DNA of 64,000 bases from a virus (IMGVR_UViG_3300021400_000012:1-64000); one strand, 5' to 3'; shown: positions 3,547 to 64,000, counted from the stretch's first letter. The notes: a model not told the origin generated them from the letters alone. Numbers and translations are program-made.

Positions 3547-4836
3547 ATGATACAACTTGACTTTAAACTTGAATGGAGAGACGAGCGCGCCAAATATGTG
3601 CAAGATCACCTTACTAGTGACATGAAGCTCTCTCCCACCGAATTAAATACAATTGGCGACTATATATTATGGGGTAAAAATCGTGAAAACGGTCTAAATG
3701 GTCTCCAAGAAGGTCTCGACCTCTACTCAAAGTGGAACCAATCCGATCAAAAGGTCGAATCTCTCGACGCCCTAATCGAATCCCCGACTTTTAACGAAAA
3801 TACATTGCGCCGGCCATCCGATCCGCCTTCAAAGCTCCCGCGCAATGTCTTTTCGCGTTCTCAAACACGCAAAAACTGTCCCGCGCACCTGATCGCCGAC
3901 TTCGAAGCCCTTTGGCGCCAAATTGACGAGACCGAGTTTTTAGTTCAACAATATGATCTCGACCACGACAAACGTAAGACGCCTTTGCGCGACGAGCTTT
4001 TAAAGCGTTTCTCTGAAGCCGAGCTTCAAACCTTGGCTTAGAAGGCGCGCCAACTAAGCCCTTACCACTACTTGAAGCTAAAACGTGAACTCGTCGATCT
4101 GCGCACACAGCAATACATTCTCAAAGACTCCTACTCGTCCACAATGCTCTCAAACCCAACTCCGAACTTCGAAGTCCAAGAACCGCCAAGCTTTGGAGAT
4201 GAGATTACATTGCGCCCACTCAACATCACGTACGACCCCGATCTCTTTTCGAAAATCTGGCGCAATGATCGCTTCCCGCAACCAGACGATTTCACCGACT
4301 TAGACCTTCAAAAGCTTTCAAAGCTTTTATGGCGCAAAGACACCGAACGTTTTTACTTCGACTTCTGCAACCGCGATCACCTCTACACTTTTTTCAATAT
4401 TTACGATTCGCTCGAAGCTGCGCCCGACTCATCATCTAACTACGACATCTTCAAACGTATCCTCCACTCTTATTTGAGTCTCGCGCCCTTAGAGCCATTA
4501 CATCGCGAAATTTTAAACCTAAAAATCAAAAAAGAATCAAACCAACTTATCGCTGACAAAATCAACTCCTAGTTTGGTCGCAAATATTCCCCAAACTACA
4601 TCTCCACCCTTTATGTTTAGAAATGCCTGCAAGGCATTTGTGACACCGCCGCACTTCACAAGCAAATTATTGAAAATTTGTTCTTTCCCGAGAACTTCAA
4701 AACTTGTAAAGATTGCGGCCGAGTCTTACTTTTAAATGAGACTAATTTTGTCAGAAGATAGAGATCAAATGACGGATTTTCTCCACGTTGTAAAGCTTGC
4801 GAGAAGATTAAACGAAAAGGAGGAAAGGCCCAATGA
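3547..4836 (+). CDS. Putative transcription regulator: sigma region-4-like HTH plus C-terminal C4 zinc finger (429 aa, code 15)
   Basis: One frame across TAGs at 4039, 4570, 4618 and 4759, ending TGA. LEPLHREILNLK...NQLIADKINSQFGRKYSPNYIS helix-turn-helix; CKDC...CKAC. Confidence 0.6.
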
Positions 4837-5117
4837 GAGCAATTACACTTAATGAAAAGTTTATATTAGAGATTTCTAATATTAAGGCACCGGAGCTATT
4901 CTTAGGAGTAGCACGTATTTTAAAAGTTCAACTAGTAAATGATAAAGACGTAAGAGATTTCGCAGACATCTATGAAGATGTATTAAATGCATTTGAAGCA
5001 GCTCCCCGCAAACGTAAACGTGAACTTTTAAAGATTTTGCATGATGCGAACAATGCGCCGGAGGCTATGGTTAATGGGAATAGAACCAAAAATTCAAAAG
5101 AAACAGAGTCTAACTAA
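4833..5117 (+). CDS. Hypothetical protein
   Basis: 94 aa, GGAGG RBS, ATGA overlap with the previous stop. Confidence 0.75.
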   Translation: MRAITLNEKFILEISNIKAPELFLGVARILKVQLVNDKDVRDFADIYEDVLNAFEAAPRKRKRELLKILHDANNAPEAMVNGNRTKNSKETESN

Positions 5118-6069
5118 GACTTGCGCGAAGTGTCATATGACAACTTCTACTGATGACTTCGCGCCGACTCATTCGATCTTTTATCCAGATCATTTTCTTC
5201 CCATCTGCAACAGCTGTGTAGATGAGTATTTAAAAGATAATAATTATTCATGGGATGCAATCGACAAACTTTGTTAGTGGGCTGACATCCCATTTATCGT
5301 GAAAGAGTGGGTTAGGATTCAAGATTTAAATGATACTCAGAGTATATGGCCCGTTTACTCTAAAGTATTTGCGGCCGAGTGTTATCGAAACCTGGGATGG
5401 GCAGACTATAATAAACAATATATAGCACTGCGCGAAGCCGGCTTAATCGAAGATGAAATCCCACTCGTAAATGATTAGCACGTTCAAGAGCTTCAGAGTA
5501 TATGGGGCGCTAATTATGAGAAATCAGAGTTAGAGTACCTTGAAGATCTTTACAAAGGTGTGCTTGCCACCCAAAATGTATCGGGATCGTTACAAGAGGA
5601 CCAAGCACGTAAAATCTGTAAACTTTCCTTAGAAATTGATAGTAGAATTCGCGCGGGCGACAAAGAAGTTGATAAGTTCTTGGCATCATATGACAAACTT
5701 ATTAAGGCCGCAGAGTTTACACCTAAGAACACGAAAAATGCGGCCGACTTTGACTCGTTTGCGGAAGTTGGTATGTGGCTTGAAAAGCGCGGACGCCAAA
5801 ATAAGTTCTATGATGGTACTACTCGCGATATAATTGACGAGTCGATTAAAAATATTGAAGCATATAACCAAAGACTTTATATTAATGAAGGTGGCATTGG
5901 TGACGAAATTACAAAACGTATCGAAGCGCTCAAAAATGCGACCAAAATTGAAGAAAGTTCGAATATGTATGATATTCAACCAGAATTTGATGTTGATGAA
6001 TATGAGAATGAAGTCTATGGGAAGTATGAAGAAGATGAATTTGATCCGACAGGAGGTATGGGCGTGTAA
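5074..6069 (+). CDS. Putative terminase small subunit with N-terminal Zn finger (331 aa, code 15)
   Basis: GGAGG RBS; joins track ORFs 5041 and 5560 over two TAGs; CAKC...CNSC; directly upstream of the large subunit. Confidence 0.6.
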
Positions 6070-7877
6070 TGGAACAAGAAGTGATTACATTGCGCGACCC
6101 TACCAAAACTCGGTTTAACCGATAGGAAAAAATATACAGAGACAATATCGAATTAGAAAAAGGTGTTGTTATAAATGAAAATTGGTTAAGAAAAAATGAA
6201 GAGTTATTATATGATTGCTGGTGTCTATACGCGGCCTACCCAGATATATATTTGGATACGATAAAACCAGTTAATTCTAACTTCGATCTTTTTCCTTATT
6301 AGCGAATTTTCTTAAGAGCTTGCATGAGATATACTACTTTGTATATTACTGCGGCGCGTGCTACGTCAAAGACATTCTTATCCATTCTTGCAAAGTATTT
6401 ATAGTGTATATTTATTCCTGGACACGTTGGATCGATCGTTGCGCCGAACAAATCGCAGGCCGCAAAAATCTCACAATAGAAAATAAAAGAGATTTGGAAG
6501 ATTTGGCCTTTATTAAAGAATGAACTTGAATATTCTGCTTCATCAAGTGACGGAGTAAGAGCTAATTTTGGTAAAGATTATTGCGATCTTTATTTTAAGA
6601 ATGGCTCACGTCTCTCCATCGTGGGCGCGCTGGACTCGGACCGTGGTATTCGTACCCACGCAACCCTTATTGATGAAGTGCGCGACCAAGACGGTGATGC
6701 TATCGCAGAGATTATTCTGCCGCAGATGAACGTGTCTCGTCGTATGGTCAATGGGCTTGTAAATCCTTATGAAAAAATCAATACACAAGTTATTTATGCG
6801 ACTAGTGCGGGCACTAAGTCGTCTTTTGCTTACGAGGCGCTTATAGATACGTTTGAAAAAGCCATCATCGATCCCGAACATAACTTCTGTATTGGTCTTG
6901 ATTATAGAATTCCTGCCATGCATGGACTTATAGATAATAACTATGTCCGTAACCTAAAATTGTCTCCGTCTTATAATGAGCAAACATTTGCGGCCGAGTA
7001 TATGGGGACATGGTTGGGTGGTAGTGAAGAGAGTTGGTTTGACTTTGAAAAAATTTCTCGTTATCGAAAACTAAAAAATCCAGAATGGAAGCAAAAATTT
7101 AGAGAAGATCCTAATGTGTTCTACTTAATATCAGTGGACGTAGGTCGTCTTTCTGACCAAACTGTTGCTTGTGTATGGCGCGTTAATATTCGTGAGAACA
7201 AAATGTTTTCAACACTTGTGTACATTGAGGTTCTTGGGCGCCAAGCTGAAACAAAACAATTTAGTTAGCAGGCAATTGATTTAAAGCGTCTCATTTAGCT
7301 TTATGATCCCAAAGAAGTCGTAATTGACTGTAATGGATTGGGCGTTGGTCTTGCGGACGAAATGATCCGGCCATAGTTAGATGATTAGGGAATTGAGTGG
7401 CCGGCCTATGGATTTTTTAATAATGATGATTATAAGAAAATTCAACCTAAAGACATTCCACTAATTCTTTACTCATTAAAGGCAAATGGACCTTTAAACT
7501 CCAAAATTCATTCTAATGCGTATACCCGTTTAAATAGTGGCCTAGTAAGATTCCTTATTACCGAACAAGAAGCGCGTGCTGCGCTAATGGCTACTAAAGC
7601 GGGTTCGCATATGAGTTTTGAAAAACGAGTTCGGCGTTTAATGCCACACGAACTCACCACTAAATTATTTGAAGAGATGGCTAACCTTCGACTTAAACGA
7701 ACAGGTTTAGATATAGTTCTTGAATAGATCAACTCTCGTTTTCCAAAAGATAAATATTCGGCTTTTGCTTACGGCCAATGGCGGATTAAAGAACTCGAAG
7801 AAGAGATGTTTAAGAAAAATAAGCGTAAAGCTGCTCTTGGGTCAAGAAGCCTAATATTTTTTACTGGAGGGAAGTAA
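6069..7877 (+). CDS. terL: Terminase large subunit (602 aa, code 15)
   Basis: LFPYQ adenine-binding motif (Q = TAG at 6300), Walker A AARATSKT, Walker B LIDE, RNase H-like ISVDVG...VIDCNGLG...KD; nine in-frame TAGs. Confidence 0.92.
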
Positions 7878-7882: not shown

Positions 7883-9373
7883 ATGAAAGAACGATCAGTT
7901 GATTTAACTGCCTTCAAAAAAATACAAGAGGAAATAATCGCGGCCAATGAACAAGCTTGGGAACGCTGGTTTTCAGCGGAACGTGCTTGGCATCATGCAG
8001 CACGCGAGTACAAACCAGAAGAGATTGAAAAAATTATCAATTCTGGAAGTATCGAACAATAGCAAAAGTTATCCCGCGATTTCTTTGAGCATAAGGGTCT
8101 TTATAGACGAATCATTTTCTATTATGGTACTTTATTAACCTATTAGGGATTATTAATCCCAAATCCAGGTTTTGGTAAAAAACTCTCCACTCCGCATATT
8201 GCCAAAAGGTATTACAATGCAATTGATTACGTTGATAGACTTAATTTGCAAGAAGTATTGACACGGGTTACTTTAAAAGCCTTAATAGATGGATGTTACT
8301 ATGGTGTTATCAATACCTTAACAAAAGATGAATTTGTTATGTTTGATCTACCCACAAAATATTGCCGCTCAAGATTCAAAGATTTTCATGGAAATGATAT
8401 TGTTGAATTTAATGTAGCATATTTTAACACCTTAGACGATCTCGACTTACGGAAAGCCGCGTTATCTACTTACCCCGAAATAGTGCGCAAGCATTATAAC
8501 AAGTTTATAAAAGCAGGAAGCGACTTAACGCCTTGGGTAAGATTACCAGCCGAGATTGGAATTTGCTTTTCATTTTTCGAACTAGGTGGACCACTTTTCT
8601 TGGATGTAATTCCAGCCACGATTCAATATGAAGATGCTGTCGATACAGAGCGCGAGCGCGAACTTGAAGAGATTCGCAAGATTATCGTTCAGAAAATCCC
8701 GCACTTAGCTGATGGACAACTTCTATTTGAGCCTGATGAAGCCTTAGAAATGCATCGTGGCGCAGTTAATATGATGCACGGTAATAAGAATTTGTCAATT
8801 TTGACAACTTATGCTGACGTGGATGCAATTGTATCAAAAACGACTGCAGAGAACGTGTCAACTTCATTAGAAAAAATGTTGCAAAACGTCTATTCTGAAG
8901 CAGGCGCTAGTACTCAGATTTTTTCGCCCACAGGAAGTTAGGCATTAGAAACGTCTATTAGAAATGATACGGCGTTAATGATGGTTTTAGGTACAAAATA
9001 CTCAAGATTTATAAGTTTTATTATCAATTCACTATTTGCAAATTCTAATATTACTTTTAAATACACGATTTTACCTATTACTTATTATAATCAAAGCGAT
9101 TATATTAAAGATAGTTTCAAACTTGCCCAAAGTGGTTACAGTTTTCTTATTCCAGCATTGGCAAGTGGACTTAGTTAGAGAGAACTTTCCAACGTTAAAG
9201 AATTAGAAAATGATCTATTAGAACTTCATACTAAATTGCTACCGCTGTCGTCTTCTTATACTCAGTCTGGCACTGGTGATGTGGGCAGACCACCGCTAGC
9301 TAATGAAGATAAAGCATTAAAGACAATTTAGAATGAAGAGTCGCTTGATCATTAGGGAGGCTCTGATGAGTAA
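7883..9373 (+). CDS. Portal protein (496 aa, code 15)
   Basis: Follows terL; one frame over six TAGs; C-terminal PLSSSYTQSG...GRP typical of large Firmicute phage portals. Confidence 0.8.
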
Positions 9374-10748: not shown

Positions 10749-11294
10749 ATGGCAAGACTGCAAATTGATGGATATGGCCAGATTGAAATTAACAACTGCG
10801 CTTTCCGTCGTGACGGTCGTATCGAAGCCCAGTGTGCTCCTGATACCACAGACTTCGCAACTGCGAAGCTTGAAAACGGTATGCTGCTTGCTGTCGATGC
10901 TGCGAACCGCACAGTTAAGTTCGCTGTCGATAGCTCTCTGCCGATCGCTTTAAATTACAGTGCTGAGCATATGTATGATGAACGCAAGCCTGGTTTAAAG
11001 AATTTCTATCTCAATGGTGAAGACGACTTCTTCCCACGCCTTGGTTACCTGTCTGTTGGTGATAAATTCACCACAAACTGCGTAAGTTATGGTACTGCCT
11101 ATGCAAGTGATGCTGCGTTTGAATCTGCGCTTGCGTCTTACAAGACCAACAAGCTGTATGGTGGCGCTAGCTCCGATGGCACAATTTTTGTTGACTCCAG
11201 CAAGCCTTCATTTGGTCCTGTTCTGGAAGTTATTGAAAAGACAACGATGCCCGACGGCAAACTTGGTATCAAGTTCCGTTGCATCGCAGAATAA
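10749..11294 (+). CDS. Capsid decoration/minor head protein
   Basis: 181 aa with LENGM motif, immediately before the major capsid gene; biased codon use; no TAG. Confidence 0.65.
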   Translation: MARLQIDGYGQIEINNCAFRRDGRIEAQCAPDTTDFATAKLENGMLLAVDAANRTVKFAVDSSLPIALNYSAEHMYDERKPGLKNFYLNGEDDFFPRLGYLSVGDKFTTNCVSYGTAYASDAAFESALASYKTNKLYGGASSDGTIFVDSSKPSFGPVLEVIEKTTMPDGKLGIKFRCIAE

Positions 11295-11313
11295 TTGAGG
11301 AGGGCAGATTATT

Positions 11314-12384
11314 ATGACTATTAGTGAATTAAAAGAGATCGCCCTTCATGCTGCTAAGGGCACAGTTCCTGCTTGCTTTGCAAATCAGGACGTTGATGTT
11401 AATGCTGCTTTTGTCGATGGTTTACGTGAACTCGCTGGTTCTGTTAACCAGTTCATGAAGAACCGTTATGACATTTATGAAATTATGATCGAGACAATCG
11501 ACCAAGTTATGCCAAAGAACGTTATCGCCGCTCTGTCTCCGTTCGCGGAAGTACAGGTTGTGCCACAGGGCCAGAAGGCGCTGTTCAAGGTTAAGACTGG
11601 TAAGGCTCGTGCGAAGAAGTTCCTGACTCAGGTTGGTCTTTCTGGCGTGTACGAAACATTCCGTCTTGATGCTAAGACATTCGAGCTTTCTGCTCATGCA
11701 GTCGGTGGCGGTGCTACAATCGACTTCGAGCGTATGCTTGATGGCGCTGAATCCCTTGCTGAAGTCATGGATATCATGACCCAAGGCCTCACAGATGCCG
11801 TGTTCGTCGAAGTTCAGCGTGCTCTTCGTGCTGCTTACGACTCTGCTGATCGTCCAGATGCTAACAAGGCTACATCTAACCACTTCAATGCTGATAAGAT
11901 GGTTAAGCTGATGAGCGTTGTTCGTGCGTATGGTAATCCTGTGATTTTTGCTCCGCCTGAATTCATCGCTGATATGGGCGCGGATGCCATCGTTCCTGTA
12001 ACGGTTGGTAACAACACAAATTACGGCGGTGTTGGCGGCGTTTACTCACCGGATGACATCGAACAAATCCATCGTACCGGTTATGTTAATATCTTCCGTG
12101 GCGCTCCGATCGTTCAGATCCCGCAGTCCTTTACGGATGAAGACAACAAGACCACTTATGTTGACCCACAGCTGGCTTATGTCCTTCCATCTACTGGCGA
12201 AAAGGTTGTCAAGGTCGTGCTTGAAGGCCAGACTCAGATTAATGATTTCAAGAACCGCGATAATTCTCTTGAAGTTTATGCTTACAAGAAAATGGGTTGC
12301 GCGATCCTTACACATTATAACTGGGGTGTTTATAAGAACACTGGCGTTGACCAAACATATTACAATCCTTACGAGAATATCTGA
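11314..12384 (+). CDS. Major capsid protein
   Basis: 356 aa; size and synteny; strongly biased codons; no TAG; followed by a terminator. Confidence 0.85.
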   Translation: MTISELKEIALHAAKGTVPACFANQDVDVNAAFVDGLRELAGSVNQFMKNRYDIYEIMIETIDQVMPKNVIAALSPFAEVQVVPQGQKALFKVKTGKARAKKFLTQVGLSGVYETFRLDAKTFELSAHAVGGGATIDFERMLDGAESLAEVMDIMTQGLTDAVFVEVQRALRAAYDSADRPDANKATSNHFNADKMVKLMSVVRAYGNPVIFAPPEFIADMGADAIVPVTVGNNTNYGGVGGVYSPDDIEQIHRTGYVNIFRGAPIVQIPQSFTDEDNKTTYVDPQLAYVLPSTGEKVVKVVLEGQTQINDFKNRDNSLEVYAYKKMGCAILTHYNWGVYKNTGVDQTYYNPYENI

Positions 12385-12395
12385 GGATAATCATA

Positions 12396-12428
12396 AGGGG
12401 AGAGGGATAAACTCCCTCTCCCTATTTC
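12396..12428 (+). terminator. Terminator after the major capsid gene
   Basis: AGGGGAGAGGGA...TCCCTCTCCCCT hairpin followed by ATTT. Confidence 0.7.
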
Positions 12429-12454
12429 AATTTAGGAGTTAAAGGAGAATTTTA

Positions 12455-12928
12455 ATGAGTAAAGTTAATATTGTGAATACCACTCGTGGTTCAGTTTTCG
12501 TAGAAGTTCGTGAAATTCCATTTCGGCATGACTGGACCGTCCAGGGCGCTAAGTTCGCCGTTGAGCATGATGTGCTTGAACAGCTTATGTATGATAAGGG
12601 CTTCAAGTATATGATTGATACTGGTATGCTTTATATTGAAGATATGGAAGAGAAAAAAGCTCTTGGTATCGAACCCGAAGAAGCAAAAGAACCAGTGAAT
12701 GTTATTGTTTTAACTGACAAAGAGCGCAGACGTTACATGGTCAATCTTTCTCTTGAAGAGTTCAAAGAAAAGGTTAGAAAGTTAAGCTATGAACAGGTTA
12801 CGCAGTTAGCAGATTATGCCGTTGCTAACAGACTTGCTGATTTTGATAAGGCAGAATTCTTAAAGGAGCTTTGCGGCCGGGATATTCTTCAGGCTATTCG
12901 TTTGAGCGCACAGAACAAGGAGGCGTAA
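12455..12928 (+). CDS. Hypothetical head-module protein
   Basis: 157 aa, AAGGAG RBS, no TAG. Confidence 0.7.
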   Translation: MSKVNIVNTTRGSVFVEVREIPFRHDWTVQGAKFAVEHDVLEQLMYDKGFKYMIDTGMLYIEDMEEKKALGIEPEEAKEPVNVIVLTDKERRRYMVNLSLEEFKEKVRKLSYEQVTQLADYAVANRLADFDKAEFLKELCGRDILQAIRLSAQNKEA

Positions 12929-12929
12929 T

Positions 12930-47950: not shown

Positions 47951-47961
47951 TTTATAATTAT

Positions 47962-53117: not shown

Positions 53118-53127
53118 TTAACGCTCC

Positions 53128-53658: not shown

Positions 53659-53690
53659 TTATAATCTCCTTTCGATATTTTTCTATATAT

Positions 53691-53719
53691 ATTATATCAA
53701 AATTTTAAAAAAAAGTCAA
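53691..53719 (-). promoter_or_regulatory. SigA-type promoter
   Basis: TTGACT-N17-TATAAT with extended -10 TG. Confidence 0.75.
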
Positions 53720-53767
53720 ATTAAAAATAGGGGCAGATACACTACCCCTATCTTTTATGTTGTAGCC

Positions 53768-54733
53768 TTACATTTCACGCATTTCTGCAACTACCAGTGC
53801 CAAAAGATCGGTCTGATCTTCGGTAAACTCTGAAAGTTTCATCTTATGACCCATTGTCATCTCAATCTTCTTAAGGATTGTTACCGCATTTTCTTCATTT
53901 TCGCTAACGAGTTTTGTCCACAGATTCTGTGCTTCTGCGCGAACCTTATTAAAGTCGAGCTTTTCTTCAATATGGACCTCTGGCGCTTCATCGACAACAG
54001 TTGCACCATCAAGCTGCGCGCTCTTTTCAATTGCTTCTGCGATTGCATCAACGAGCTGCTGATAACCAAACTCGATCTTCGGCGCGAGATACTTGAATCT
54101 ACTGCCAGCCATGACATAAGGTGTCTGCCGCGTATAGAGATAACGATGAGAATTTCCCTGTTCATCCCATTCGATTGCAATGTATCCGATGACGTCCACG
54201 AGACGATTACAAATTTCATAACAACGCTTATTCAGCGCGGGCTTATAAAATTCTTTTTCTGAGTCATCAATTGTTTCTTTTCTGACTTCTTCGTGGGCAA
54301 TGAGAATTAATCCATAACCCAGCATTGTGATCTGTCGCAGCGTTGACTCAAATTCCTGTTTAACGGCTGAGTACCCAGCACCCCATGGGATTTCGCTAAT
54401 CTTTTGAACACCATTCTGCACGCAGATATATTGTTCGCAAAGGTCATATGCTATCGACGCAGTGTCGACGGTAATGGTGTCATACATTTCGCGAGCCTTT
54501 GCATTAGCGAGCTGACGAACGATAAGTTTGAGATCACTCCACTTTTGAACGGGCTGAACATATACGCCATCTAGCGCGTTCGTTCCCATTTCAAAAGCAA
54601 GAATCAGGTTCTTTTTGAACTTGGCGGCGAAGGAGGTTTTACCCACCTTCGGCGCGCCATAAATAAGGACATATTTGCCCTTTAAATCACGTGAAATAAC
54701 ACTAGGCTTAATACTTAAAATATCAATAGCCAT
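53768..54733 (-). CDS. Sak4-like/AAA_24 ATPase (ssDNA annealing recombinase)
   Basis: YGAPKVGKT, ITVDT, LIAH, AGSR; next to the SSB gene. Confidence 0.8.
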   Translation of the reverse strand: MAIDILSIKPSVISRDLKGKYVLIYGAPKVGKTSFAAKFKKNLILAFEMGTNALDGVYVQPVQKWSDLKLIVRQLANAKAREMYDTITVDTASIAYDLCEQYICVQNGVQKISEIPWGAGYSAVKQEFESTLRQITMLGYGLILIAHEEVRKETIDDSEKEFYKPALNKRCYEICNRLVDVIGYIAIEWDEQGNSHRYLYTRQTPYVMAGSRFKYLAPKIEFGYQQLVDAIAEAIEKSAQLDGATVVDEAPEVHIEEKLDFNKVRAEAQNLWTKLVSENEENAVTILKKIEMTMGHKMKLSEFTEDQTDLLALVVAEMREM

Positions 54734-54747
54734 TCTTCACCTCGCAA

Positions 54748-55671
54748 TTAAAATCCGAGGTCAAGTGCTCCCTTCGTGCCATGCTGCACTGGAGTCTTCT
54801 TAACTGCCGGAGCAGACTTACGCTCTTCAAGACGAGCCTTCCGAGCGGCCATAGCTGCCTTAATATCACTCAGTTCCCAGCCAAGATCGCCATCCAGCGG
54901 TGCCTGAGAACCACCAGTGATAACAAATTCGCTAACATTAATTGTGCGATAAGACTTCTGAGGCTCACCAAAATCAACTTCTTCTACCACTTCTTCAGTA
55001 CGAGAAGAGAAATTCAGACGGCCACTTGCCTTAAAGCACTCACCAGCACTCCAATATCCTTCGATGGCATCAATAACACTTGGAGACGAAGCAACCAGTG
55101 TAATGAGATCGACATTCATCACGCTAGCATTTGGAGCCGTATACTGCGGCACAATAACTTCCACCTTCAGCTTCGCGGGATCCAGTTCAACGCCTTCTCT
55201 ATCAACCATACGAGCAATACTGGAAACCATAAATTCAAGATTAAATGTAGCCTGCGGTGTAAATTCACCAGTTGCCTTGCTTACGAACGAAGCATTAACA
55301 CGCGGCTGCGAAACCATCTGACCATTCTGACCAAGGAATTCATTCATACGAATGTTTGCATTGGTGATACGAACCTTATCTGCCTGCTCAACCGAACCAG
55401 CGGCTGCGATAGACACATATTCTTTCATGACACGTTCAATCGACTCATACGCCGGATTGATCTTTCCAGCCTTAGTATACTTGGTCGAGAACATATAAAC
55501 CGGGATCTCAAGATTCACTTCGGAGCCATTAATATTCTGATTTACCAGAACCTTAATCGAACCACCGATTGCTTCAACATCTGCACCATCTCTCTGAAAT
55601 GAGCTATACTTTAAATCAGTTTCTGCAAGAATACCTTCAATCTTAACTTTGTTTTCTGCCTGTCTAAACAT
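54748..55671 (-). CDS. Single-stranded DNA-binding protein
   Basis: Tandem OB-like organisation, NKVKIEGIL start, ends LGF; adjacent to the Sak4-like gene. Confidence 0.6.
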   Translation of the reverse strand: MFRQAENKVKIEGILAETDLKYSSFQRDGADVEAIGGSIKVLVNQNINGSEVNLEIPVYMFSTKYTKAGKINPAYESIERVMKEYVSIAAAGSVEQADKVRITNANIRMNEFLGQNGQMVSQPRVNASFVSKATGEFTPQATFNLEFMVSSIARMVDREGVELDPAKLKVEVIVPQYTAPNASVMNVDLITLVASSPSVIDAIEGYWSAGECFKASGRLNFSSRTEEVVEEVDFGEPQKSYRTINVSEFVITGGSQAPLDGDLGWELSDIKAAMAARKARLEERKSAPAVKKTPVQHGTKGALDLGF

Positions 55672-55711
55672 TTTTTTCTCCTAGTTTTTTTATTCAGTTT
55701 TTTTGAGAGAG

Positions 55712-55740
55712 AAATGCCCGTAGTAAAGACCACGGGCATT
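55712..55740 (-). terminator. Hairpin/terminator after the wHTH gene
   Basis: AATGCCCGT...ACGGGCATT. Confidence 0.6.
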
Positions 55741-55752
55741 GCTAATGATCTA

Positions 55753-56007
55753 TTACTCTTCGTCAGCTTCCGGAACGTAGTTCAGACCAGCATCAGTCAG
55801 GGTGACAATCGTGATCTTACGACCTTCTTCAGTCTTGCCGCCATCTTCTGTCGTAGCCAGACCATTCTTCACCAGCGAGTTCACACGACCGGTAACAGAC
55901 GCGATCTTCTCAAGGCCAAGGCCATTCATAATCTCAGCAGTTGTGCAGCTGCCACCATGATTCTTAATAAAATCAAAAGCTTCCTGTGTCTTCTCTTTAA
56001 GCACCAT
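55753..56007 (-). CDS. Winged-helix (MarR-like) DNA-binding protein
   Basis: TTAEIMNGLG...SVTGRVNSLVKNGL...LTDAG. Confidence 0.8.
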   Translation of the reverse strand: MVLKEKTQEAFDFIKNHGGSCTTAEIMNGLGLEKIASVTGRVNSLVKNGLATTEDGGKTEEGRKITIVTLTDAGLNYVPEADEE

Positions 56008-56137
56008 TCTATTCTCCTATTCCGCCATTTATTTTTTATAGTTTATTTTATTTGTTGGGCGGCCAACTACAATTAAGAAAGTCATCTTTAACTTTCTATA
56101 TTATTATTATAGTAAAAATTTCATCATTTTTCAAACT

Positions 56138-58483
56138 TTAAACGACTGAAAGATTTATAATTTTAGAATTTTCTGTTAATTTTAAAACTTTCACGCCTTG
56201 TGTCCCGCGCGATAAAAGCGGTACGTCTTGAAGTTTGATACGAATTTGTGAAACATTTGAAGTAATTAATAGATCATTCTGTGAATTAATTGGTAAAATA
56301 TCACAAAGTGAGCTGGTATTTTGAATTTTTACACCTTTGGTAGCGCGCCCCGTCACTCTAAATTCTGAGAGAGTGGTTCGTTTGATGTATCCATCTGTTG
56401 AGATGGAAGCGAGTTCAGTGGCACCTGCAGGCATGACGCAGGCCCCGCAAACCACGTCGCCTTCATCAAGTTTAATGCCCGTGATGCCGCGGCTAACGCG
56501 ACCAGTTGATCGAATGTCTTTCGTGTCGATCCAGATAAAGTTGCCGGATTGAGAAGCAATTCCGATCCGTTCTTCGTCCACAAACAATCCTGCCACAATT
56601 TCGTCGCCTGGGTCGAGTTTAATAGCGGTTGCGCCCACATTTCGTTTAAGATTGTATTCATTTATTTCTGACTTTTTGAGTACTCCGTGTCTAGTAATGA
56701 AAATAATGAACTTTTTCCTAGCGCTCGTGGATAATACAGCACCGGCGATGACCCGTTCATTGGGAACGAGGTTGCAGTATCCAGACAACAAAGTTTTGGC
56801 ATCGACTTCAAATTGGCCCAACCGGACATGATAGAAGTTGCCGAGCTGAGTGAACAAGAGGATTTCATCGCTGCTTGATCCAACGGCAGTCGATATAACG
56901 TATTCTCCTTTGTCCAATTTAAACTTGGAACCAACTCCAGTTCGCTTTTGGGTGTAGAGAGTACTGGTTTCTTGAGCGAAGATGGCGCCGGTGTTGCAGA
57001 AGGCGACTGAGATTTGTTTTTTCTCAATTGGTTCCGAATCTTCGCTTTCTGCGAGCGATGTAATTTTTGTCCTGCGGGCATCGCCGTATTTTTTGGCGAC
57101 TTCTTGCCAGCCTTTTTTGATTTCTGCATTGAAGAGCTCTTCATTATTTAATATCCTCTCAATTGATTCTGCTTCACTTAAAAGTTTAATACGTTCATCT
57201 TCTAATTTTTTAACTTCCAAATGTGCTAGACGACTCAGTTTCATATCCAAAACGGCCTTAGCCTGAATATCATCTAGTAGGAACTGATTACATAATTTCA
57301 ATGTGGCGGCCGCAGTCGAAGCAGAAGATTTAATAACTTGTACTACTTCTTCGATTCGCGCCAAACAAATTAAAAGACCATCAATAATATGTATACGATC
57401 TTTAATTTTTTGTAAATCATATTCAAATCCACGGCGATAGACTTCTTTTTCGTGATCGATATGAGCTTGGAGCATTTCCTTCCAAGTAAACGCTCGCGGA
57501 AAACGACCTTTGTCAAGCATTGTGAAGTTAATGCCGAAGTAAGATTGCAGCGATGTATTCTTGAAAAGATATTTCAGAACTTTATCAGGGTTAGCTTTCT
57601 TCATCAAATAAATTTTGATGAGCGGTGTTTTACCCGTTAAGTCATTAAAGCGCTCAACGCCAGGGTTCTCTTCTGATTCAATTATCTTTTCAAGCTCTCC
57701 GCAGATTGTGTTTGTATATACTCCATAAGGAATCTCTGTGACAACAAAGCATCTTTCTTTGCTGTCGAAGTCAACGACTGATCGCAATTTACAGGCAAAA
57801 CCGGTTCCGGCGCGCATTGATTGTTTGACTTCGGATTCATTATATAAAATTGCGCCCGTCGCAAAATCGGGAGCGCAGTAGATGTCCTCGAAGCTACATT
57901 CTGGGTTATCAATTAAATAACAAAGAGCATTGTTCAGTTCTTTTAAGTTATACTGCGGAATGGAACAAGCCATTCCAACGCCAATACCTTGCGCGCCATT
58001 AACGATATTGTAGAAACCTTTTGTAGGAAGAATAGCTGGATACTGTTTCGTATTATCATAACTATCACGCCATTCAATAATTGTTTCTTTATCAATATCA
58101 TCAAACATCTGGCCAGCTATTTTTGACAAACGAGATTCAGTATAACGTGGTGCTGCCCAGTTTCCACTTTCGATTAATGATCCAGCATTACCCTTTACAT
58201 CAATTAATGGATAACGCATAGCAAAAGGCTGGCCGGCGCGCATGATAATTCCTTCACAAGAACTGTCACCATGGATATAAAAATCAGCCATGGCCATACC
58301 AACTGCGTTCATTGTTTTCTTATGTGGGTTATTTGCAGTTAATTTATGAATGAGCATAGAATAAAAGATCTGACGTGCAGAAGGTTTTAATCCATCGCGT
58401 ACATCGATCAAGGCTCTATTTTGTAATACTGCGCCCGCATATTGTATAAATGAATCTTGAATTACGGTATTTAATTCACTCAT
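56138..58483 (-). CDS. gyrA: Type IIA topoisomerase subunit A (gyrase A-like)
   Basis: RDGLKP, HGD, AAPRYTE catalytic Tyr, beta-pinwheel repeats, GyrA-box-like QKRTGVG. Confidence 0.9.
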   Translation of the reverse strand: MSELNTVIQDSFIQYAGAVLQNRALIDVRDGLKPSARQIFYSMLIHKLTANNPHKKTMNAVGMAMADFYIHGDSSCEGIIMRAGQPFAMRYPLIDVKGNAGSLIESGNWAAPRYTESRLSKIAGQMFDDIDKETIIEWRDSYDNTKQYPAILPTKGFYNIVNGAQGIGVGMACSIPQYNLKELNNALCYLIDNPECSFEDIYCAPDFATGAILYNESEVKQSMRAGTGFACKLRSVVDFDSKERCFVVTEIPYGVYTNTICGELEKIIESEENPGVERFNDLTGKTPLIKIYLMKKANPDKVLKYLFKNTSLQSYFGINFTMLDKGRFPRAFTWKEMLQAHIDHEKEVYRRGFEYDLQKIKDRIHIIDGLLICLARIEEVVQVIKSSASTAAATLKLCNQFLLDDIQAKAVLDMKLSRLAHLEVKKLEDERIKLLSEAESIERILNNEELFNAEIKKGWQEVAKKYGDARRTKITSLAESEDSEPIEKKQISVAFCNTGAIFAQETSTLYTQKRTGVGSKFKLDKGEYVISTAVGSSSDEILLFTQLGNFYHVRLGQFEVDAKTLLSGYCNLVPNERVIAGAVLSTSARKKFIIFITRHGVLKKSEINEYNLKRNVGATAIKLDPGDEIVAGLFVDEERIGIASQSGNFIWIDTKDIRSTGRVSRGITGIKLDEGDVVCGACVMPAGATELASISTDGYIKRTTLSEFRVTGRATKGVKIQNTSSLCDILPINSQNDLLITSNVSQIRIKLQDVPLLSRGTQGVKVLKLTENSKIINLSVV

Positions 58484-58504
58484 TTTTATTTCCTTTTATA
58501 AAAA

Positions 58505-58726
58505 TTAAAGATGGCTAAAACATTGAATATGTTTATTTATTTCATTACTATTACAGTCACCAGTAATAATTAACTCTTTTAACTCTGAAAATGGGAATAA
58601 GTATTGTTTGTCTCGTGAGCGTATTATTACGTTTTTTAAACCGTTAATTAAAATAGTTCTTTTGTTTGTGTGAATTGAAATATCAATTACATTTTCATCG
58701 GCTGTGTTTGTAATAGATTCTGTCAT
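58505..58726 (-). CDS. Hypothetical protein between the topoisomerase subunits
   Basis: 73 aa, GGGAG RBS; AT-rich. Confidence 0.55.
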   Translation of the reverse strand: MTESITNTADENVIDISIHTNKRTILINGLKNVIIRSRDKQYLFPFSELKELIITGDCNSNEINKHIQCFSHL

Positions 58727-58733
58727 GTTTTTT

Positions 58734-60587
58734 TTACTCCCTTATCTTTGAAAAATCAATATTGTTCATTATAAATTCACGGCGAGGTTCAACTTCTACA
58801 CCCATTAAATCATAAAGTAAATTAATTGCTTTATCACCCCACTCCATGCGTTCCATTCTTTGATATTCTTTAGTAAACATAGAAATATGGGCAATTTCGG
58901 CGTCTAACTCACCAAGACCTTTCGCGCGAGTAACTTCGCCTTTAATATTTTTTCTTACTTTATTAAATTCTTCATCTGTGAAATAAAATGAATATTTATT
59001 TTTATTTTCAACTATATATAGAGGAGATCGAAGCCAATATAATCGTCCCTCTTTAATAAAATCAGGAGCAAAATATGTTAAAGCTGCCATTATCAAAAGA
59101 CCTATATGCGCACCATCACTGTCGGCATCAGTACAAATTGCAATTTTTCCGTATCTTAATTTAGAAGCGTTATATTTGCCAGGAGTAATATTCATTGCGC
59201 TAAGTAAAAGTTTAATTTCTTCGTTTTGAAAAATTTTTTCTTCTTGATTAGACAGACAATTAATAATTTTACCACGAATTGCTAAAAGTCCATATCTTGT
59301 ATAATCTCGAGCTTGCGCCATTCCTCCCATAGCACTATCACCCTCTACAATTAAAAGAGTTGAATTTTCTCCTAAAAATTCAGCATCTTTTAATTTATCT
59401 GATGCAAATACTTTTTTCTTTTGATTTTTTTCAATTTCTTTTGCTGCATTTAGGACTTGCTGGCGGGCTCGCTCGGCTGCAGCTTCAGCTTTTGCAATCT
59501 TTTTAAGGAGATCCACAATTGTATTGAACTCATCCTTATATCGTAGCTGCATTTGTTTGAGAGCGTCGGAGAATGCATTCGAAGCCAAAGTTCGCAAACT
59601 CGCGTTATTGATTTTTGATTTTGTTTGGTTAGCAAAAGAAGGATTCGCCACGGAACAGTTGATGACATAGAATAAACCAGATCTAATACTATCCCCATCA
59701 AACTTTTGCCCTGACAACGAGTTGAAAGTACGAGTAATCGCGGTCTTGGCTCCAGTAATCGGAGATCCGCCCTCTGGACAACGTAGGCCATTAACGAAGA
59801 CATATTCAGATTCTTTGCCGCTTCCCCACTGAAAAGCGATGTCAACTCGATCGGTTCCATCTGTTGCACTCCCAGTAATAATATGTTGATGTAGTGGATC
59901 GGTGATATTATCTTTTACAAAATCAACAATACCATTTTTTGCACAATAAGTTTTAATTTTATTGTTTTCACCACGAACTTCAAATGTAATTCCGCTATAT
60001 AAATAGGAAATATTTTTTATATCTTCGGAAATTTTATCAAATGAATAACCAATCTCTCCATTTTTGAAAACTTCGGGATCGGGTCGGAACCAAACATAAG
60101 TTCCATCTTTTTCACTTGTTTTAAATTCTTTATAATTTGTTAAAAAGCCCTGATGGAAAGTTGCTTCTGCGCCCTGGCCGCCACGAAAGCTTTGTACAAT
60201 AAAATCTTGGGCGCTTAAACATACGCATTTCGCGCCAATGCCATTTAAACCACTAACATTCTTATAAACCGAATCATCAAACTTGCCGCCAGTATGAGAA
60301 CGAGAATAAATTGAAACTAAAACATTTTCTCCGTCTTCTCTAATACCGAAAGGTACGCCGCGGCCATAGTCACGAACACTTATTGAATTATCTGTTTCTT
60401 GAAGACAAATTTCGATTTTTTTGCCAAATCCAGCAATTGCTTCATCGGTTGCATTATTGATGATTTCTTTTAGTGCTTGATAAGTGCCATCATTATCATC
60501 TGTACCAAGATACATTTGAATACGGGTTCTTACGCCTTCTCTAAAGTCTAATGACTTAATGTCGTCGATTCCATATTCTTGGCTCAT
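58734..60587 (-). CDS. gyrB: Type IIA topoisomerase subunit B (gyrase B-like)
   Basis: EIINNATDE, DYGRG, GGKF, GLNGIG, EGDSA, RGKI, DADSDG, KGLGE. Confidence 0.92.
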   Translation of the reverse strand: MSQEYGIDDIKSLDFREGVRTRIQMYLGTDDNDGTYQALKEIINNATDEAIAGFGKKIEICLQETDNSISVRDYGRGVPFGIREDGENVLVSIYSRSHTGGKFDDSVYKNVSGLNGIGAKCVCLSAQDFIVQSFRGGQGAEATFHQGFLTNYKEFKTSEKDGTYVWFRPDPEVFKNGEIGYSFDKISEDIKNISYLYSGITFEVRGENNKIKTYCAKNGIVDFVKDNITDPLHQHIITGSATDGTDRVDIAFQWGSGKESEYVFVNGLRCPEGGSPITGAKTAITRTFNSLSGQKFDGDSIRSGLFYVINCSVANPSFANQTKSKINNASLRTLASNAFSDALKQMQLRYKDEFNTIVDLLKKIAKAEAAAERARQQVLNAAKEIEKNQKKKVFASDKLKDAEFLGENSTLLIVEGDSAMGGMAQARDYTRYGLLAIRGKIINCLSNQEEKIFQNEEIKLLLSAMNITPGKYNASKLRYGKIAICTDADSDGAHIGLLIMAALTYFAPDFIKEGRLYWLRSPLYIVENKNKYSFYFTDEEFNKVRKNIKGEVTRAKGLGELDAEIAHISMFTKEYQRMERMEWGDKAINLLYDLMGVEVEPRREFIMNNIDFSKIRE

Positions 60588-61122: not shown

Positions 61123-61494
61123 ATGAAAAGAGGAACTACACCAACCTTACCCGTTCGATTAAAACTTAAAATTACTGATATTGAGTCTATTGAATTTCTT
61201 TTCAAACAGATAAAAGCAGAATCAGCTCCGGAAATTTTAAAAAAAGTTTATCCAGGTGATGACGTTGAATTCAATGAAGAAACTGGTCTTTTTGGAATTT
61301 CATTTTCAGAAGCTGATACACGGTTATTTACCGAAGATTAGCCGTTCTATATGGATACGCGTATTACTTTAATAAATGGTAAAATACCAGAAACACCTAT
61401 TGTAACATTACGTATGCATCCGACTCTGTTTGAATCAATAGATGAGGAGTCTGAAGACGATGGGTCTGAACAAGAAACCTCGCCAGCTGGTTAA
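61123..61494 (+). CDS. BppU-N-like baseplate/fibre-associated protein (123 aa, code 15)
   Basis: MKRGTTPTL start; reads through the TAG at 61339 to TAA. Confidence 0.55.
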
Positions 61495-61819
61495 TGTCGA
61501 GGTTGTTTGTACGCCTGTCACTGACGTTGAAGTTTTAATTGATCCAGTTACAGGGGTAGAAACAAAAACAGAAGTGATCCCTGGCGTGAAAGGTACAACA
61601 TTTATACCTTCCGTCTCTTCGGAAGGGATCATCTCTTGGACTAATGATGATGGGTTACCAAATCCTGAACCTGTAAATATCAAAGGACCGCAAGGTAATC
61701 CAACGACGATTAATGGTAAAACTGGTGAGTCTATTACATTAACTGCCGAAGACGTGGGCGCCTTATCATCAGCAGATTTTGATTTGATCGATTGCGGGAC
61801 AAGCACGGAGGTGGTATGA
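61460..61819 (+). CDS. Fibre-associated protein with short collagen-like motif
   Basis: GAGGAG RBS; FIPSVSSEGIISWTND.GLPNP..VNIKGPQG...INGKTG..LTAEDVGA. Confidence 0.65.
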   Translation: MGLNKKPRQLVNVEVVCTPVTDVEVLIDPVTGVETKTEVIPGVKGTTFIPSVSSEGIISWTNDDGLPNPEPVNIKGPQGNPTTINGKTGESITLTAEDVGALSSADFDLIDCGTSTEVV

Positions 61820-62187
61820 TGTCAATAAAAACAAGAATTAAATTAAAACGTGATACTACCGCTAATTGGAATGCCGCACATGGATTTATACCGCTCGAGG
61901 GAGAAATTATTATTTATTTAGACGGTAGAAAAATTGAGAAAAATGGCGAACTTGTAAATATGCCTACTATCAAAATTGGGGATGGAAAAGCTTATGTCCA
62001 AGATTTACCTTTTGTAGATGATGATACAAGAGATACACTTTTATTACATATAAATGATTCATTAATACACGTAAGTGCGCGAGATCGTCAATTTTGGGAT
62101 AATAAAATTAATATTGACGATTTGTATGAATCATTAAATGAAGAATTAGAAAATGAAACTTTAATATTCAGCAGAGATTTTCTGTGA
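61816..62187 (+). CDS. Protein with hyaluronidase/Mtd-type N-terminal fibre domain
   Basis: IKLKRDTTANW...PLEGE...KIGDG...LPF. Confidence 0.65.
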   Translation: MMSIKTRIKLKRDTTANWNAAHGFIPLEGEIIIYLDGRKIEKNGELVNMPTIKIGDGKAYVQDLPFVDDDTRDTLLLHINDSLIHVSARDRQFWDNKINIDDLYESLNEELENETLIFSRDFL

Positions 62188-62200
62188 ATAAGGAGATAAA

Positions 62201-63370
62201 ATGGCAGATATTAGCAAAATTAAGTTACCTTCTGGTAATGAATATGACATAAAGGACGCTGTAGCCAGATAGATGATTGCTGGTGGTGTTTCTTTTAATA
62301 TTGTGTGGACAGCCGCAGAATATGCTAGTACATCGGCGCCTAACGCCGCTAAATTAGCAACCATCCCTGCTGGAGTTAATGTCTATTACAATAACGGCGC
62401 AGCCCATGCAACTGGTACTCTCGCGGCCAGCGATGATACGATTGGTAAGTTTTATTTAATTTATTCTAAAACTTAGGCCGGCACGTTAGATGCTTTTGAT
62501 GAATATGCGACAATTGGCGAAAGTACCAAAACGTGGGAAAAGATCGGTGATACATTAATTGATCTGTCAGGATTAGTAACAGATGTTACTCTTAATAAGT
62601 AGACTGATTCAGCCATTGGTGTGGATGCTACTTTCACTGTTACCCAACCGACGGTTGCATTAGCAACTGATACTACTTCTGGTACTGGCAAAGTACAAGT
62701 AGCAACTGGCGCGTCTGGCACAACTAAATATATTGGCGCGACCGCGACTGGTGGTGGCGCGGCTTGGGCTTCTAAGGATACAAAAACTGTTGTTACAAGT
62801 GTTACTGCTTCGACAAGTAATCTCGCAACAAGTAGCGTTACTGGTGTGCAGGCGGCAACCACAACCGCGTCTAAAGCTACTGCTGCGGCCAGCTAGGTTA
62901 CTGCGAATGGGTCTGGTACTGCTACAACCGAAAATACCGATTGGTTAAAAGGTGTTAGTGTGGCTAACGAGGTTTTGACCATAGGGGCGGCCGCGATGGA
63001 CACTCAAGCAACAACTCAATTTACTTTTGCAGATGTTACTGTTCCAATTAAGAATAGTTCTGCTACAACAGTTGCAACTGGACAGCTTGTTGCTACAGGT
63101 GGTGGAGCATCGGTTGCTACCAATGTAAGCGTAGGAAGCTCTGTTGATGTTATCGGTTCAAGCGCAACCCTTAGTAATACGCAGCCGACCATCAGTCTCG
63201 CTCAAAATGATGCTACTGCAACAGGTAGAGTTGGAGTTGTGACTGATATTAGTGCGTCTACTACCTATTTAAAAGCTACTGCGGCGGATGGTAATGTTGC
63301 TTGGAACAATAAAGATAGTGTAAGTGTCCTTACAAGTACTTCTTCAATTACTGTTACAAAAGGCGAGTAA
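62201..63370 (+). CDS. Ala/Thr-rich virion fibre-like protein (389 aa, code 15)
   Basis: AAGGAG RBS; four TAGs; starts MADISKIKLPSGNEYDIKDAVAR. Confidence 0.7.
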
Positions 63371-63396
63371 TTTATACCGTTTTTTAGGAGGTATAA

Positions 63397-64000
63397 ATGG
63401 CTGATATTAAATAGATTACATTACCAAATGGTAGTGTTTATAATATAAAAGACGAAGTCGCAAGAAATGCTATTAGTAACTTAAATAGTTTTAATATTGC
63501 AGTTGTTCAATCTCTTCCTACTTAGAATATAGATAGTCATACTATTTATTTTTTAGGAAATCCTCCTTCAGTTGTTGGTGAAGCAGCGGTTGGTTCAGCA
63601 TATGTTACTGAAGAAAATAATATTTATGAAGAGTGGATATATGTTAATAATCGATGGGAGATAGTTGGAACTACTGCAATTAATTTGGATGATTATGTTC
63701 CTACTTCGAGAAAGGTTAATGGAAAAGAACTAAGTAATGATATTACTATAGGCGCTGGAGATATTGATCTTGACATGTATGGCGATATTATGCCATTAGA
63801 TGAAGCTATATAGGATCTTGCTGGCAACCTTTCTTCTGTAGCTTGGAGTGGTAGCTATAATGATTTAAGTGATACTCCACCCTTAGCTCCGGTGGCTCTG
63901 AGTGGTAGTTATAATGATTTAAGTGATACTCCAACTTTGGCTTAGTCTAACTGGGAAGAAACGGATGGTACTGATCTGAGTTATATTGAAAATAAACCAC
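63397..64000 (+). CDS. Fibre-like protein, truncated by the window end (code 15)
   Basis: AGGAGG RBS; starts MADIKQITLPNGSVYNIKDEVAR; VAxSGSYNDLSDTP repeats. Confidence 0.7.
63847..63933 (+). repeat. 33-bp intragenic direct repeat (54-bp period)
   Basis: AGTGGTAGYTATAATGATTTAAGTGATACTCCA at 63847 and 63901. Confidence 0.85.

Follow-up and report, generated by a model that had tools for sequence, protein, structure and literature searches.

What does the codon TAG mean in a phage in which gene after gene is interrupted by it and by no other stop codon? The question is raised by IMGVR_UViG_3300021400_000012:1-64000, a stretch of viral DNA of 64,000 nucleotides (the window), for which a first, sequence-only reading proposed that TAG is reassigned to glutamine. 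The window is bases 1-64000, about half, of a complete and terminally redundant genome of 127,574 bp with a G+C content of 36.8%; the first 107-108 bases are repeated at the end of the contig, the resulting 108-bp terminal overlap closes the genome, and the IMG/VR record gives direct terminal repeats and 100% completeness. Comparison with homologues leads us to the view that TAG is very probably a sense codon for glutamine in this phage (NCBI translation table 15), decoded via a phage-encoded tRNA with the anticodon CUA, tRNA(CUA).

TAG as the only stop codon inside genes

With TAG read as sense, the part of the window from 3547 to its end holds 24 open reading frames (ORFs) carrying 186 in-frame TAGs and zero TAA or TGA, which bears out the initial claim that more than 20 genes are broken by TAG alone, and in the whole genome 166 ORFs carry 356 in-frame TAGs and 0 TAA/TGA. 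Out of frame within the called genes, TAA and TGA together are about fourfold more numerous than TAG (5616 vs 1320), and the in-frame TAG-only pattern is far beyond chance. The TAGs are evenly distributed along genes, with no excess at their 3' ends. The gene blocks, defined from Pfam and PHROG matches, are as follows (window coordinates):

3547-37254, plus strand: virion (late) operon, 21 back-to-back ORFs with TAG as sense, 56 pieces in code 11
3547-4836, plus strand: sigma-factor-like gene, first of the operon, 4 in-frame TAGs; PHROG 5767 (sigma factor), E 6e-13
6069-7877, plus strand: terminase large subunit (TerL), 9 in-frame TAGs; PHROG 2, 9 and 38; 42% identity to the TerL of Geobacillus virus E3 (E3)
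6300-6302, plus strand: TAG at TerL codon 78 (FPY-q-R), 23 residues ahead of the invariant Walker-A-type Lys101
7883-9373, plus strand: portal protein, 6 in-frame TAGs; PHROG 2739, E 2e-62
10749-13603, plus strand: TAG-free block in the operon (putative scaffold, HK97-fold major capsid, three small head genes)
10749-11294, plus strand: putative scaffold gene, assigned from position alone
11314-12384, plus strand: HK97-fold major capsid protein, assigned with AlphaFold2 and Foldseek
15582-16424, plus strand: major tail (tube) protein, TAG-free; PHROG 2729; homologues annotated major tail or tail tube
17324-25414, plus strand: tape measure ORF of 2696 codons, 53 in-frame TAGs; tandem TAG-TAG at 18074-18079 and 19829-19834
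25513-36807, plus strand: Dit-like distal tail protein (PHROG 33, Dit) and three large tail proteins, with 6, 33, 18 and 17 in-frame TAGs
37.3-43.9 kb, minus strand: nucleotide-metabolism group (RuvC, dUTPase, PHROG 6721 protein, NrdG-like protein, NrdD)
37288-38007, minus strand: RuvC-like resolvase gene, 7 in-frame TAGs; Pfam RuvC, E 1e-9
38007-38924, minus strand: dUTPase with N-terminal extension; Pfam dUTPase; TAG at 38151-38153 precedes catalytic motifs 4-5
39159-39809, minus strand: PHROG 6721 protein, TAG at 39330-39332
43937-60587, minus strand: replication block (Pol III alpha, RecJ, primase, DnaB, GyrA, GyrB and small genes, from Pfam), no in-frame TAG
61430-64000, plus strand: start of a second TAG-rich virion/tail-fibre block, ORFs with 4 and 8 TAGs; it continues to about 78 kb of the genome

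Coding density was computed under code 11 and with each stop codon taken in turn as sense:

Window: code 11, 0.727; TAG sense, 0.961; TGA sense, 0.731; TAA sense, 0.871
Virion operon: code 11, 0.580 (56 pieces); TAG sense, 0.980 (21 genes); TGA sense, 0.598; TAA sense, 0.816
Replication block: code 11, 0.982; TAG sense, 0.982; TGA sense, 0.927; TAA sense, 0.957
Whole genome: code 11, 0.696; TAG sense, 0.924; TGA sense, 0.724; TAA sense, 0.848

The change from code 11 to code 15 thus raises the density of both the window and the genome. Recoding of TGA or TAA was rejected, as the densities with these codons as sense are lower and neither stop occurs in frame; no TGA-recoded relative was found among the 80 loci described below. 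TAA and TGA are the sole terminators. The statement of the sequence-only reading that every gene ends in TAA or TGA holds, although it becomes partly circular once ORFs are called with TAG as sense. Some 5'-proximal TAGs, for example in the ORFs at 1453-1950, 38007-38972 (codon 4) and 40489-42411 (codon 15), may precede the true start. Outside the window, three small ORFs (genome 89868-90167, 119317-119874 (+) and 122251-122436 (-)) have a TAG 1-7 codons ahead of their TAA or TGA; these may be former terminators that are now backed up by a second stop.

Fragmentation under code 11 is also what decayed or mis-assembled sequence with truly broken genes would produce, and it is the one observation in favour of such an artefact. 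However, TAG is the sole stop codon present in frame, the pattern recurs with shared TAG positions in dozens of independent metagenome contigs, and the genome closes on its terminal overlap and is complete in IMG/VR. We consider an artefact practically inconceivable, and pseudogenes and assembly error were rejected on the TAG-only in-frame pattern.

Annotation under code 11 shreds about half of the genome, yielding 209 ORF fragments instead of 166 genes, and the genes for terminase, portal, tape measure and tail would be overlooked. Annotation under table 15 is warranted for this record and for roughly 35 recoded IMG/VR relatives.

The amino acid at TAG positions

To read the meaning of TAG from homologues, TAG was translated as X so that alignment scoring favours no residue. 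A tblastn search of such proteins against a single genome, that of E3, showed no preferred residue (Q 3, K 4, E 4 etc.) at 21-42% identity; this distant genome was uninformative and was replaced by 80 IMG/VR loci carrying TerL relatives of 50-97% identity, about 45 of which have no in-frame TAG at all and were taken as standard-code.

Across the 80 loci, the codons that face the TAG sites of the phage are CAA (32%), TAG (12%) and CAG (9%), followed by codons for Glu, Lys and Arg. As CAA is two substitutions away from TAG, its dominance has to do with meaning and not with mutational closeness. Where alignments reach 90% identity or more, the TAG sites show TAG 63 times, Gln 14 times and Thr 3 times, so that TAG behaves as a synonym of the Gln codons. 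Of all residues, Gln is by far the one whose substitution spectrum best accounts for the residues seen at TAG columns: the likelihood per aligned pair is highest for Gln (-2.07), with Lys next best (-3.16), followed by Glu (-3.34), Ser (-3.70), Tyr (-4.82) and Trp (-7.18), and the share of Gln at TAG columns (47%) equals the self-conservation of true Gln codons (46%).

In the 45 standard-code loci Gln makes up 49.8% of the residues at TAG sites of the phage and is the plurality residue at 19 of 36 sites, and all invariant TAG columns are Gln: TerL codon 78 (39/39), codon 79 of the gene at 5041 (39/39), portal codon 432 (43/43) and codons 45 and 130 of the gene at 14828 (31/31 each). Portal codons 60 and 491 are Gln in 40/44 and 41/43 of these relatives, respectively. 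The TerL TAG columns are mostly Gln in relatives; codon 78, the TAG at 6300-6302 that the sequence-only reading had placed in the YQ motif, is Gln also in E3 and CAA or TAG in recoded relatives. When the six closest recoded relatives of the phage are pooled, 27 of their TAG sites show at least 90% conservation in standard-code relatives, 24 of them as Gln, and in each recoded group the TAG sites strongly conserved in standard-code relatives are overwhelmingly Gln.

All coordinates given by the sequence-only reading proved correct, and the other positions that it singled out agree with this. The tandem TAG-TAG pairs of the tape measure gene at 18074 and 19829 are in frame. The TAG at 39330-39332 lies in PDWW-q-MIQLLPSSYN, and 115 of 119 PHROG 6721 homologues have Gln in the corresponding column of WWQ[M/L]IQLLP. 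In the dUTPase, motifs 4-5 (GEKFCQLVL and RGGGFGSTG) lie beyond the TAG at 38151-38153 and align to solved dUTPases only past it, and the PDB alignments span residues on both sides of the TAG.

The composition of the genes points in the same direction. Gln-type codons of the genome comprise 356 TAG, 717 CAA and 380 CAG, so that TAG accounts for about one quarter of them. In every gene block the combined share of CAA, CAG and TAG is about 3.0-4.6% of codons, and the TAG-rich blocks have low CAA plus CAG (1.8-2.7%) that TAG raises into the range of the TAG-free blocks.

The PHROG 6721 protein itself belongs to a very abundant phage family with more than 8000 database relatives, no Pfam assignment and an invariant WWQxIQLLPSSYNQ motif. 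The sequence-only reading called it ThyX-like; the TAG position it gave is correct, and the label rests solely on a match to Thy1 (PF02511) of 17 bits, below the gathering cut-off of 24.8 (11 of 22 family members match, likewise below threshold). Sequence and profile searches of this protein against the PDB gave no match, its AlphaFold2 model is poor (predicted local distance difference test, pLDDT, of 62), and an ESM Atlas cluster with a near-identical score (0.98) has 10% Thy1 members.

The suppressor tRNA and its proposed charging

The 64-kb window has no tRNA, as the sequence-only reading had noted in respect of the suppressor. The rest of the genome supplies one: ARAGORN finds 23 tRNAs between 90 and 103 kb, among them a class I tRNA of 71 nt with the anticodon CUA at genome positions 90173-90243, which matches the Rfam tRNA model over its full length (52.3 bits). 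A full-length ROOL RNA (Rfam RF03087, 268 bits) adjoins the tRNA array at genome 102151-102758 (+) (L087:1151-1758), also outside the window; two small ORFs called over it are spurious, and the relative with 92% TerL identity has a ROOL RNA as well (L102:4593-5187, 258 bits).

As read from its sequence and fold, tRNA(CUA) has U1-A72, G2-C71, G3-C70, G73, G10 and U35, and its ends (5' UGGGGU.UCG, 3' CCAG) nearly match those of the phage's own tRNA-Gln(UUG). These features belong to the identity set of the Escherichia coli glutaminyl-tRNA synthetase (GlnRS), and U1-A72 is an identity feature for GatCAB; two further E. coli Gln identity positions, G36 and U38, are absent (A36 and C38). The tRNA thus appears to fit charging by GlnRS, with U1-A72 fitting GatCAB, which supports Gln without proving it.

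No RF-1 or PCRF domain and no tRNA-synt_1c domain (GlnRS and glutamyl-tRNA synthetase, GluRS) was found anywhere in the genome, and no gene for release factor 2 (RF2) or GlnRS either. With no synthetase gene, host enzymes must charge tRNA(CUA); with no release factor gene, host release factor 1 (RF1) must be outcompeted or neutralised by something unrecognised. We propose that a host enzyme, either GlnRS or a non-discriminating GluRS followed by GatCAB, would charge tRNA(CUA) with Gln, and that the charged tRNA would outcompete host RF1 almost completely.

Several observations weigh against glutamine as the decoded residue. At 17 of the 36 sites in standard-code relatives the plurality residue is other than Gln (Arg, Glu, Lys, Asn, Asp and others), which is expected for variable Gln positions and is not proof. 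The acceptor "Gln identity" follows E. coli rules and is largely shared with tRNA-Trp. The best BLAST match of tRNA(CUA) is a phage gene annotated as tRNA-Trp (78% identity), a BLAST search of E. coli genomes gave no match, and pairwise comparison with the other tRNAs of the phage shows no specific affinity (identity to Met 0.68, to Ile 0.65, to Gln 0.63), so that sequence similarity does not settle the isotype. Finally, in relatives that likewise have TAG in Gln columns the tRNA(CUA) gene is quite different or cannot be detected, which means that the tRNA sequence alone does not fix the amino acid.

It has therefore to be considered that TAG is sense but is decoded as Glu (from unamidated Glu-tRNA), Lys, Trp, Ser, Tyr or pyrrolysine. 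ARAGORN labels tRNA(CUA) "Pyl", from its anticodon alone, the annotation of the nearest BLAST match points to Trp, the long-variable-arm tRNA(CUA) genes of relatives resemble class II tRNAs, and relatives have Glu, Lys or Arg in some of the TAG columns. This is nonetheless very unlikely, since the likelihood is highest for Gln and lower for Lys and the rest, every invariant TAG column is Gln, CAA is the commonest counterpart despite lying two changes off TAG, the share of Gln plus TAG is narrow across blocks with TAG filling the shortfall of CAA and CAG, and the tRNA(CUA) of the phage itself is a 71-nt class I molecule. Decoding as Trp, pyrrolysine, Ser or Tyr was rejected on the residue likelihoods.

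How complete must suppression be? For the tape measure gene with its 53 TAGs, read-through of 90% per codon would leave 0.4% of the chains full-length and 99% would leave 59%; about 98-99% per codon gives a third to half full-length product. The 53 TAGs thus imply that suppression must be close to complete. In E. coli supE (glnV44), GlnRS accepts a CUA tRNA that has U1-A72, G2-C71, G3-C70 and G73, and this tRNA competes with RF1 to insert Gln at UAG; supE is inefficient and is tolerated because few genes end in UAG. Unlike in supE strains, hundreds of essential sense positions rely on the suppressor in the phage, which implies near-complete suppression.

Alternatively, TAG may have a dual meaning, with partial read-through and sizeable termination, a scheme in which truncation or a low yield would be intended. 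In its favour, the genome shows neither an RF1 antagonist nor a gene for RF2, the host presumably has RF1, several lineages keep TAG out of their most abundant proteins, and three ORFs have a TAG 1-7 codons before TAA or TGA. Such an arrangement is distinctly improbable given that single essential tail genes contain 53, 33, 18 and 17 TAGs in addition to tandem TAG-TAG, that at 90% efficiency next to no complete tape measure chains would be made, and that TAGs run evenly along genes and do not pile up at the 3' end.

Where TAG is used and where it is avoided

None of the 182 Gln-type codons of the replication block (43937-60587) is TAG (P ~2e-33 at the TAG share of the virion operon), which makes the early and replication genes compatible with the standard code. 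Few TAGs are found in the region 108.5-127.6 kb of the genome, which consists mostly of small ORFs and is assumed to have early functions. The TAG-free replication block fits the published model of early genes in the host code and late genes under a suppressor (bioRxiv 10.1101/2021.08.26.457843). The sigma-like gene, first in the operon, itself needs four TAGs to be read, and across 16498-36807 the TAG share of Gln-type codons is 0.43.

Inside the late operon, none of the 31 Gln-type codons of the block from the putative scaffold to the small head genes (10749-13603) is TAG, for which P=2.7e-6 given the TAG share of the operon. Among recoded relatives that do not belong to the clade of the phage, the putative scaffold has 0 TAG in 3881 codons, the capsid 1 in 6011 and the major tail 2 in 1877; the TerL, portal and connector genes of the same relatives have 12-26 TAG per 1000, and the flanks of the major tail gene 23-26 per 1000. 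TAG-rich genes are poor in CAG, and TAG-free genes keep CAG at or above CAA. In our reading, the avoidance of TAG in putative scaffold, capsid and tail comes from selection that keeps codons requiring the suppressor out of the messages translated most heavily. A TAG-free capsid gene has been described in one crAss-like phage (2026 preprint 10.64898/2026.08.21.746148), and among the phAss-1 markers TerL, major capsid protein, tape measure and Pol III alpha, suppressor TAGs were named for TerL and tape measure only (PMC10607447); TAG avoidance in abundant proteins is thus an extension of these patterns and not a discovery.

From this distribution we infer a timing model. The genes needed first (replication and small early genes) would be TAG-free and so translatable by the naive host, and the sigma-like factor, terminase, portal, tail, RuvC, dUTPase and putative lysin would need the suppressor, so that they would be made only as it builds up. 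The virion proteins needed in greatest amount (putative scaffold, major capsid and major tail) avoid TAG, the likely reason being that suppressor-dependent decoding is slower or capacity-limited. Two results do not favour the timing model: TAG avoidance in the capsid shows that efficiency effects operate beside any timer, and a promoter scan near tRNA(CUA) found no more sites than in shuffled sequence.

It is possible, though we hold it to be somewhat doubtful, that TAG has no timing role, and that, once a suppressor is present, changes of CAG to TAG drift in where selection for translation speed is weak and are purged from early and highly expressed genes. The inverse relation of TAG and CAG among genes is as this drift would have it, as is the absence of TAG from the putative scaffold, capsid and tail-tube genes of the same late operon in independent lineages; the code state flips at least three times among close relatives, and a standard-code relative already has a tRNA(CUA) with 9 of its 153 genes ending in TAG. 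Drift alone fits less well with a replication block that is TAG-free as a whole (0/182) though not expected to be very highly expressed, with the TAG dependence of the first late-operon gene, the sigma-like factor, and with the same early/late split in unrelated recoded clades (bioRxiv 10.1101/2021.08.26.457843).

Code switching and the suppressor locus

A tree of 45 TerL sequences, with TAG columns masked, requires at least three changes between the recoded and standard states, all three forced by well-supported branches. The phage is one of six members of a recoded group that branches within standard-code phages, a second recoded clade, with 19 members, stands apart, one further recoded branch is present, and recoded and standard-code phages with 75-83% identical TerL stand side by side. 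In L053, L060, L061, L068, L070, L073, L076-L078, L081 and L082 the TerL match is 2.0-2.6 kb long (vs 1.8 kb) or split, which points to an insertion in the terminase of some relatives, be it an intron, an intein or an endonuclease. Three relatives illustrate the range of suppressors:

G001 (92% TerL identity), 120 kb: recoded, tRNA(CUA) of 88 nt with a long variable arm
G002 (record of L028), 122,701 bp, complete, terminal repeats: recoded, no tRNA(CUA) detectable
G006, 111 kb: standard code, 9 of 153 genes ending in TAG, tRNA(CUA) of 91-94 nt with a long arm

G002 has 333 in-frame TAGs in 74 genes, and ARAGORN finds no tRNA(CUA) among its 10 tRNAs. The tRNA(CUA) genes of G001 and G006 occupy the same syntenic position as that of the phage and are unrelated to it in sequence; in G006 (L112:7851-7941) the gene encodes CCA, scores 57 bits with Rfam and lies 1273 nt from the orthologous upstream gene, as in the phage. 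The state of G006 could be pre- or post-recoding. A further relative, G005, has a 71-nt tRNA(CUA) (L089:1478-1550) with the same anticodon arm as that of the phage and a CCCCC/GGGGG acceptor stem, which means that the acceptor-stem "Gln identity" is not conserved among the suppressors of the clade.

In the phage, tRNA(CUA) is followed after 12 nt by a TAG-free, free-standing gene for a GIY-YIG homing endonuclease (tRNA and nuclease together at genome 90173-91239, L086:8173-9239). When compared with the loci of relatives, only the phage has this gene next to its suppressor; in G001, where the flanking genes are syntenic, about 115 nt with the unrelated 88-nt tRNA(CUA) replace the 1.1-kb segment of tRNA and nuclease. 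This raises the idea of the code switch as a swappable cassette, in which homing endonucleases drive the replacement of suppressor tRNAs among co-infecting phages. If true, cassette exchange would spread or renew TAG decoding and would help to explain the interleaved codes in the TerL tree, but we think it unlikely. Scans of IMG/VR for the exact pattern of this tRNA(CUA) and for close relatives of the GIY-YIG protein found none, and so lend no support to wide mobility of the cassette, and a search for the tRNA in five recoded and five standard-code relatives gave T-arm matches or one anticodon-arm match only.

Relation to known recoded phages

The phage is a tailed phage, a siphophage, and its TerL groups with those of large phages of Bacillota: it is closest to large Bacillota siphophages, with 42% identity to E3, the closest cultured TerL, and 35% to Phage Phass-1, and Enterococcus and SPbeta-like phages are also among the matches. 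Relatives of the phage originate from gut and rumen metagenomes. A search for the host in GTDB genomes returned phage-like contigs only: TerL relatives of 62% and 57% identity occur on contigs L116 and L117, binned in a Methanobrevibacter metagenome-assembled genome (MAG) from goat ileum and in a Faecalibacillus MAG; these are probably phage contigs swept into the bins and are weak host evidence at best.

The sequence-only reading was right that TAG-to-Gln recoding is already known in gut phages; it is established in gut and rumen phages, and the phage described here is a further example. Together with a phage tRNA(CUA), TAG-free replication genes and patchiness of the code, such recoding is known for crAss-like, Lak, Garnet and Agate phages (bioRxiv 10.1101/2021.08.26.457843; PMC8346664) and for the phAss-1 group of 133-138-kb siphophages (PMC10607447), and peptides with Gln at TAG were shown for crAss-like phages (PMC9523058). 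The split between early and late genes recurs in unrelated recoded clades (bioRxiv 10.1101/2021.08.26.457843). What makes the present case useful is correct annotation, together with a clade well placed for tests of how phages change their code and why. With mixed codes, abundant proteins that avoid TAG and suppressors that differ or are undetectable, the clade is a good natural experiment, and it bears on the override of RF1 by phage, on timer versus drift and on code change over short evolutionary distances.

The closest described kin are phAss-1-like siphophages of the "code 15 clade", perhaps together with Agate phages; NCBI places Phass-1 (OQ749652; proposed Phassvirus) under "Caudoviricetes code 15 clade". 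Like phAss-1, the phage is a gut siphophage with a genome of about 130 kb, a giant tape measure gene, a Pol III alpha replication module, Gln encoded by TAG in the genes for TerL, portal, tape measure and tail fibre, intermixed standard-code relatives, its own tRNA(CUA) and no aminoacyl-tRNA synthetase, and the TerL and capsid proteins of the two are detectable homologues. It differs in having one suppressor tRNA instead of three and 23 tRNAs instead of 36, and its nearest relatives are other metagenome phages. Members of Phassvirus share 80-86% nucleotide identity genome-wide and synteny (PMC10607447), so that with identities of 35% in TerL and 34% in capsid the phage does not belong to this genus and is related to it at a higher rank only.

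The Agate phages (bioRxiv 10.1101/2021.08.26.457843) are likewise large phages of cattle and pig gut, one lineage being about 127 kb, with structural and lysis genes in several recoded modules, replication genes in the standard code, code differences between close relatives and a standard-code relative with a suppressor tRNA. The Agate lineage analysed there is TGA-recoded, unlike the present phage, which is TAG-recoded and has no RF2 gene. Kinship with the lineage of about 127 kb seems plausible from the descriptions of size, habitat and code patchiness, which are all that was compared. Code-15 crAss-like and Lak phages also use TAG as Gln in late genes (PMC9523058; PMC8346664); in them Gln was deduced from TerL alignments, and a change of CAG to TAG was proposed as the origin of the code. 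Unlike the present phage, they are unrelated podophage and megaphage lineages with Bacteroidota hosts, and some Lak phages encode RF2.

Other genes of the phage and of E3

Searches of the PDB with the sequences and profiles of TerL and of the capsid protein returned nothing useful. The AlphaFold2 model of the major capsid protein (pLDDT 88.2, predicted template modelling score 0.84) matches many phage capsids and encapsulins with a Foldseek probability of 1.0 and E values of 2e-9 and below. The tape measure ORF is weakly similar to the tape measure region of E3, and in E3, too, a sigma factor gene sits a few genes upstream of the terminase. Further downstream in the second TAG-rich block, tail, leucine-rich repeat and lectin-type domains are encoded. 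In E3, GP69 (L003:9519-13622) is a topoisomerase II gene annotated as joined across an in-frame stop, with peptide sequencing cited in the annotation as confirmation, and is a separate case of read-through in a standard-code relative.

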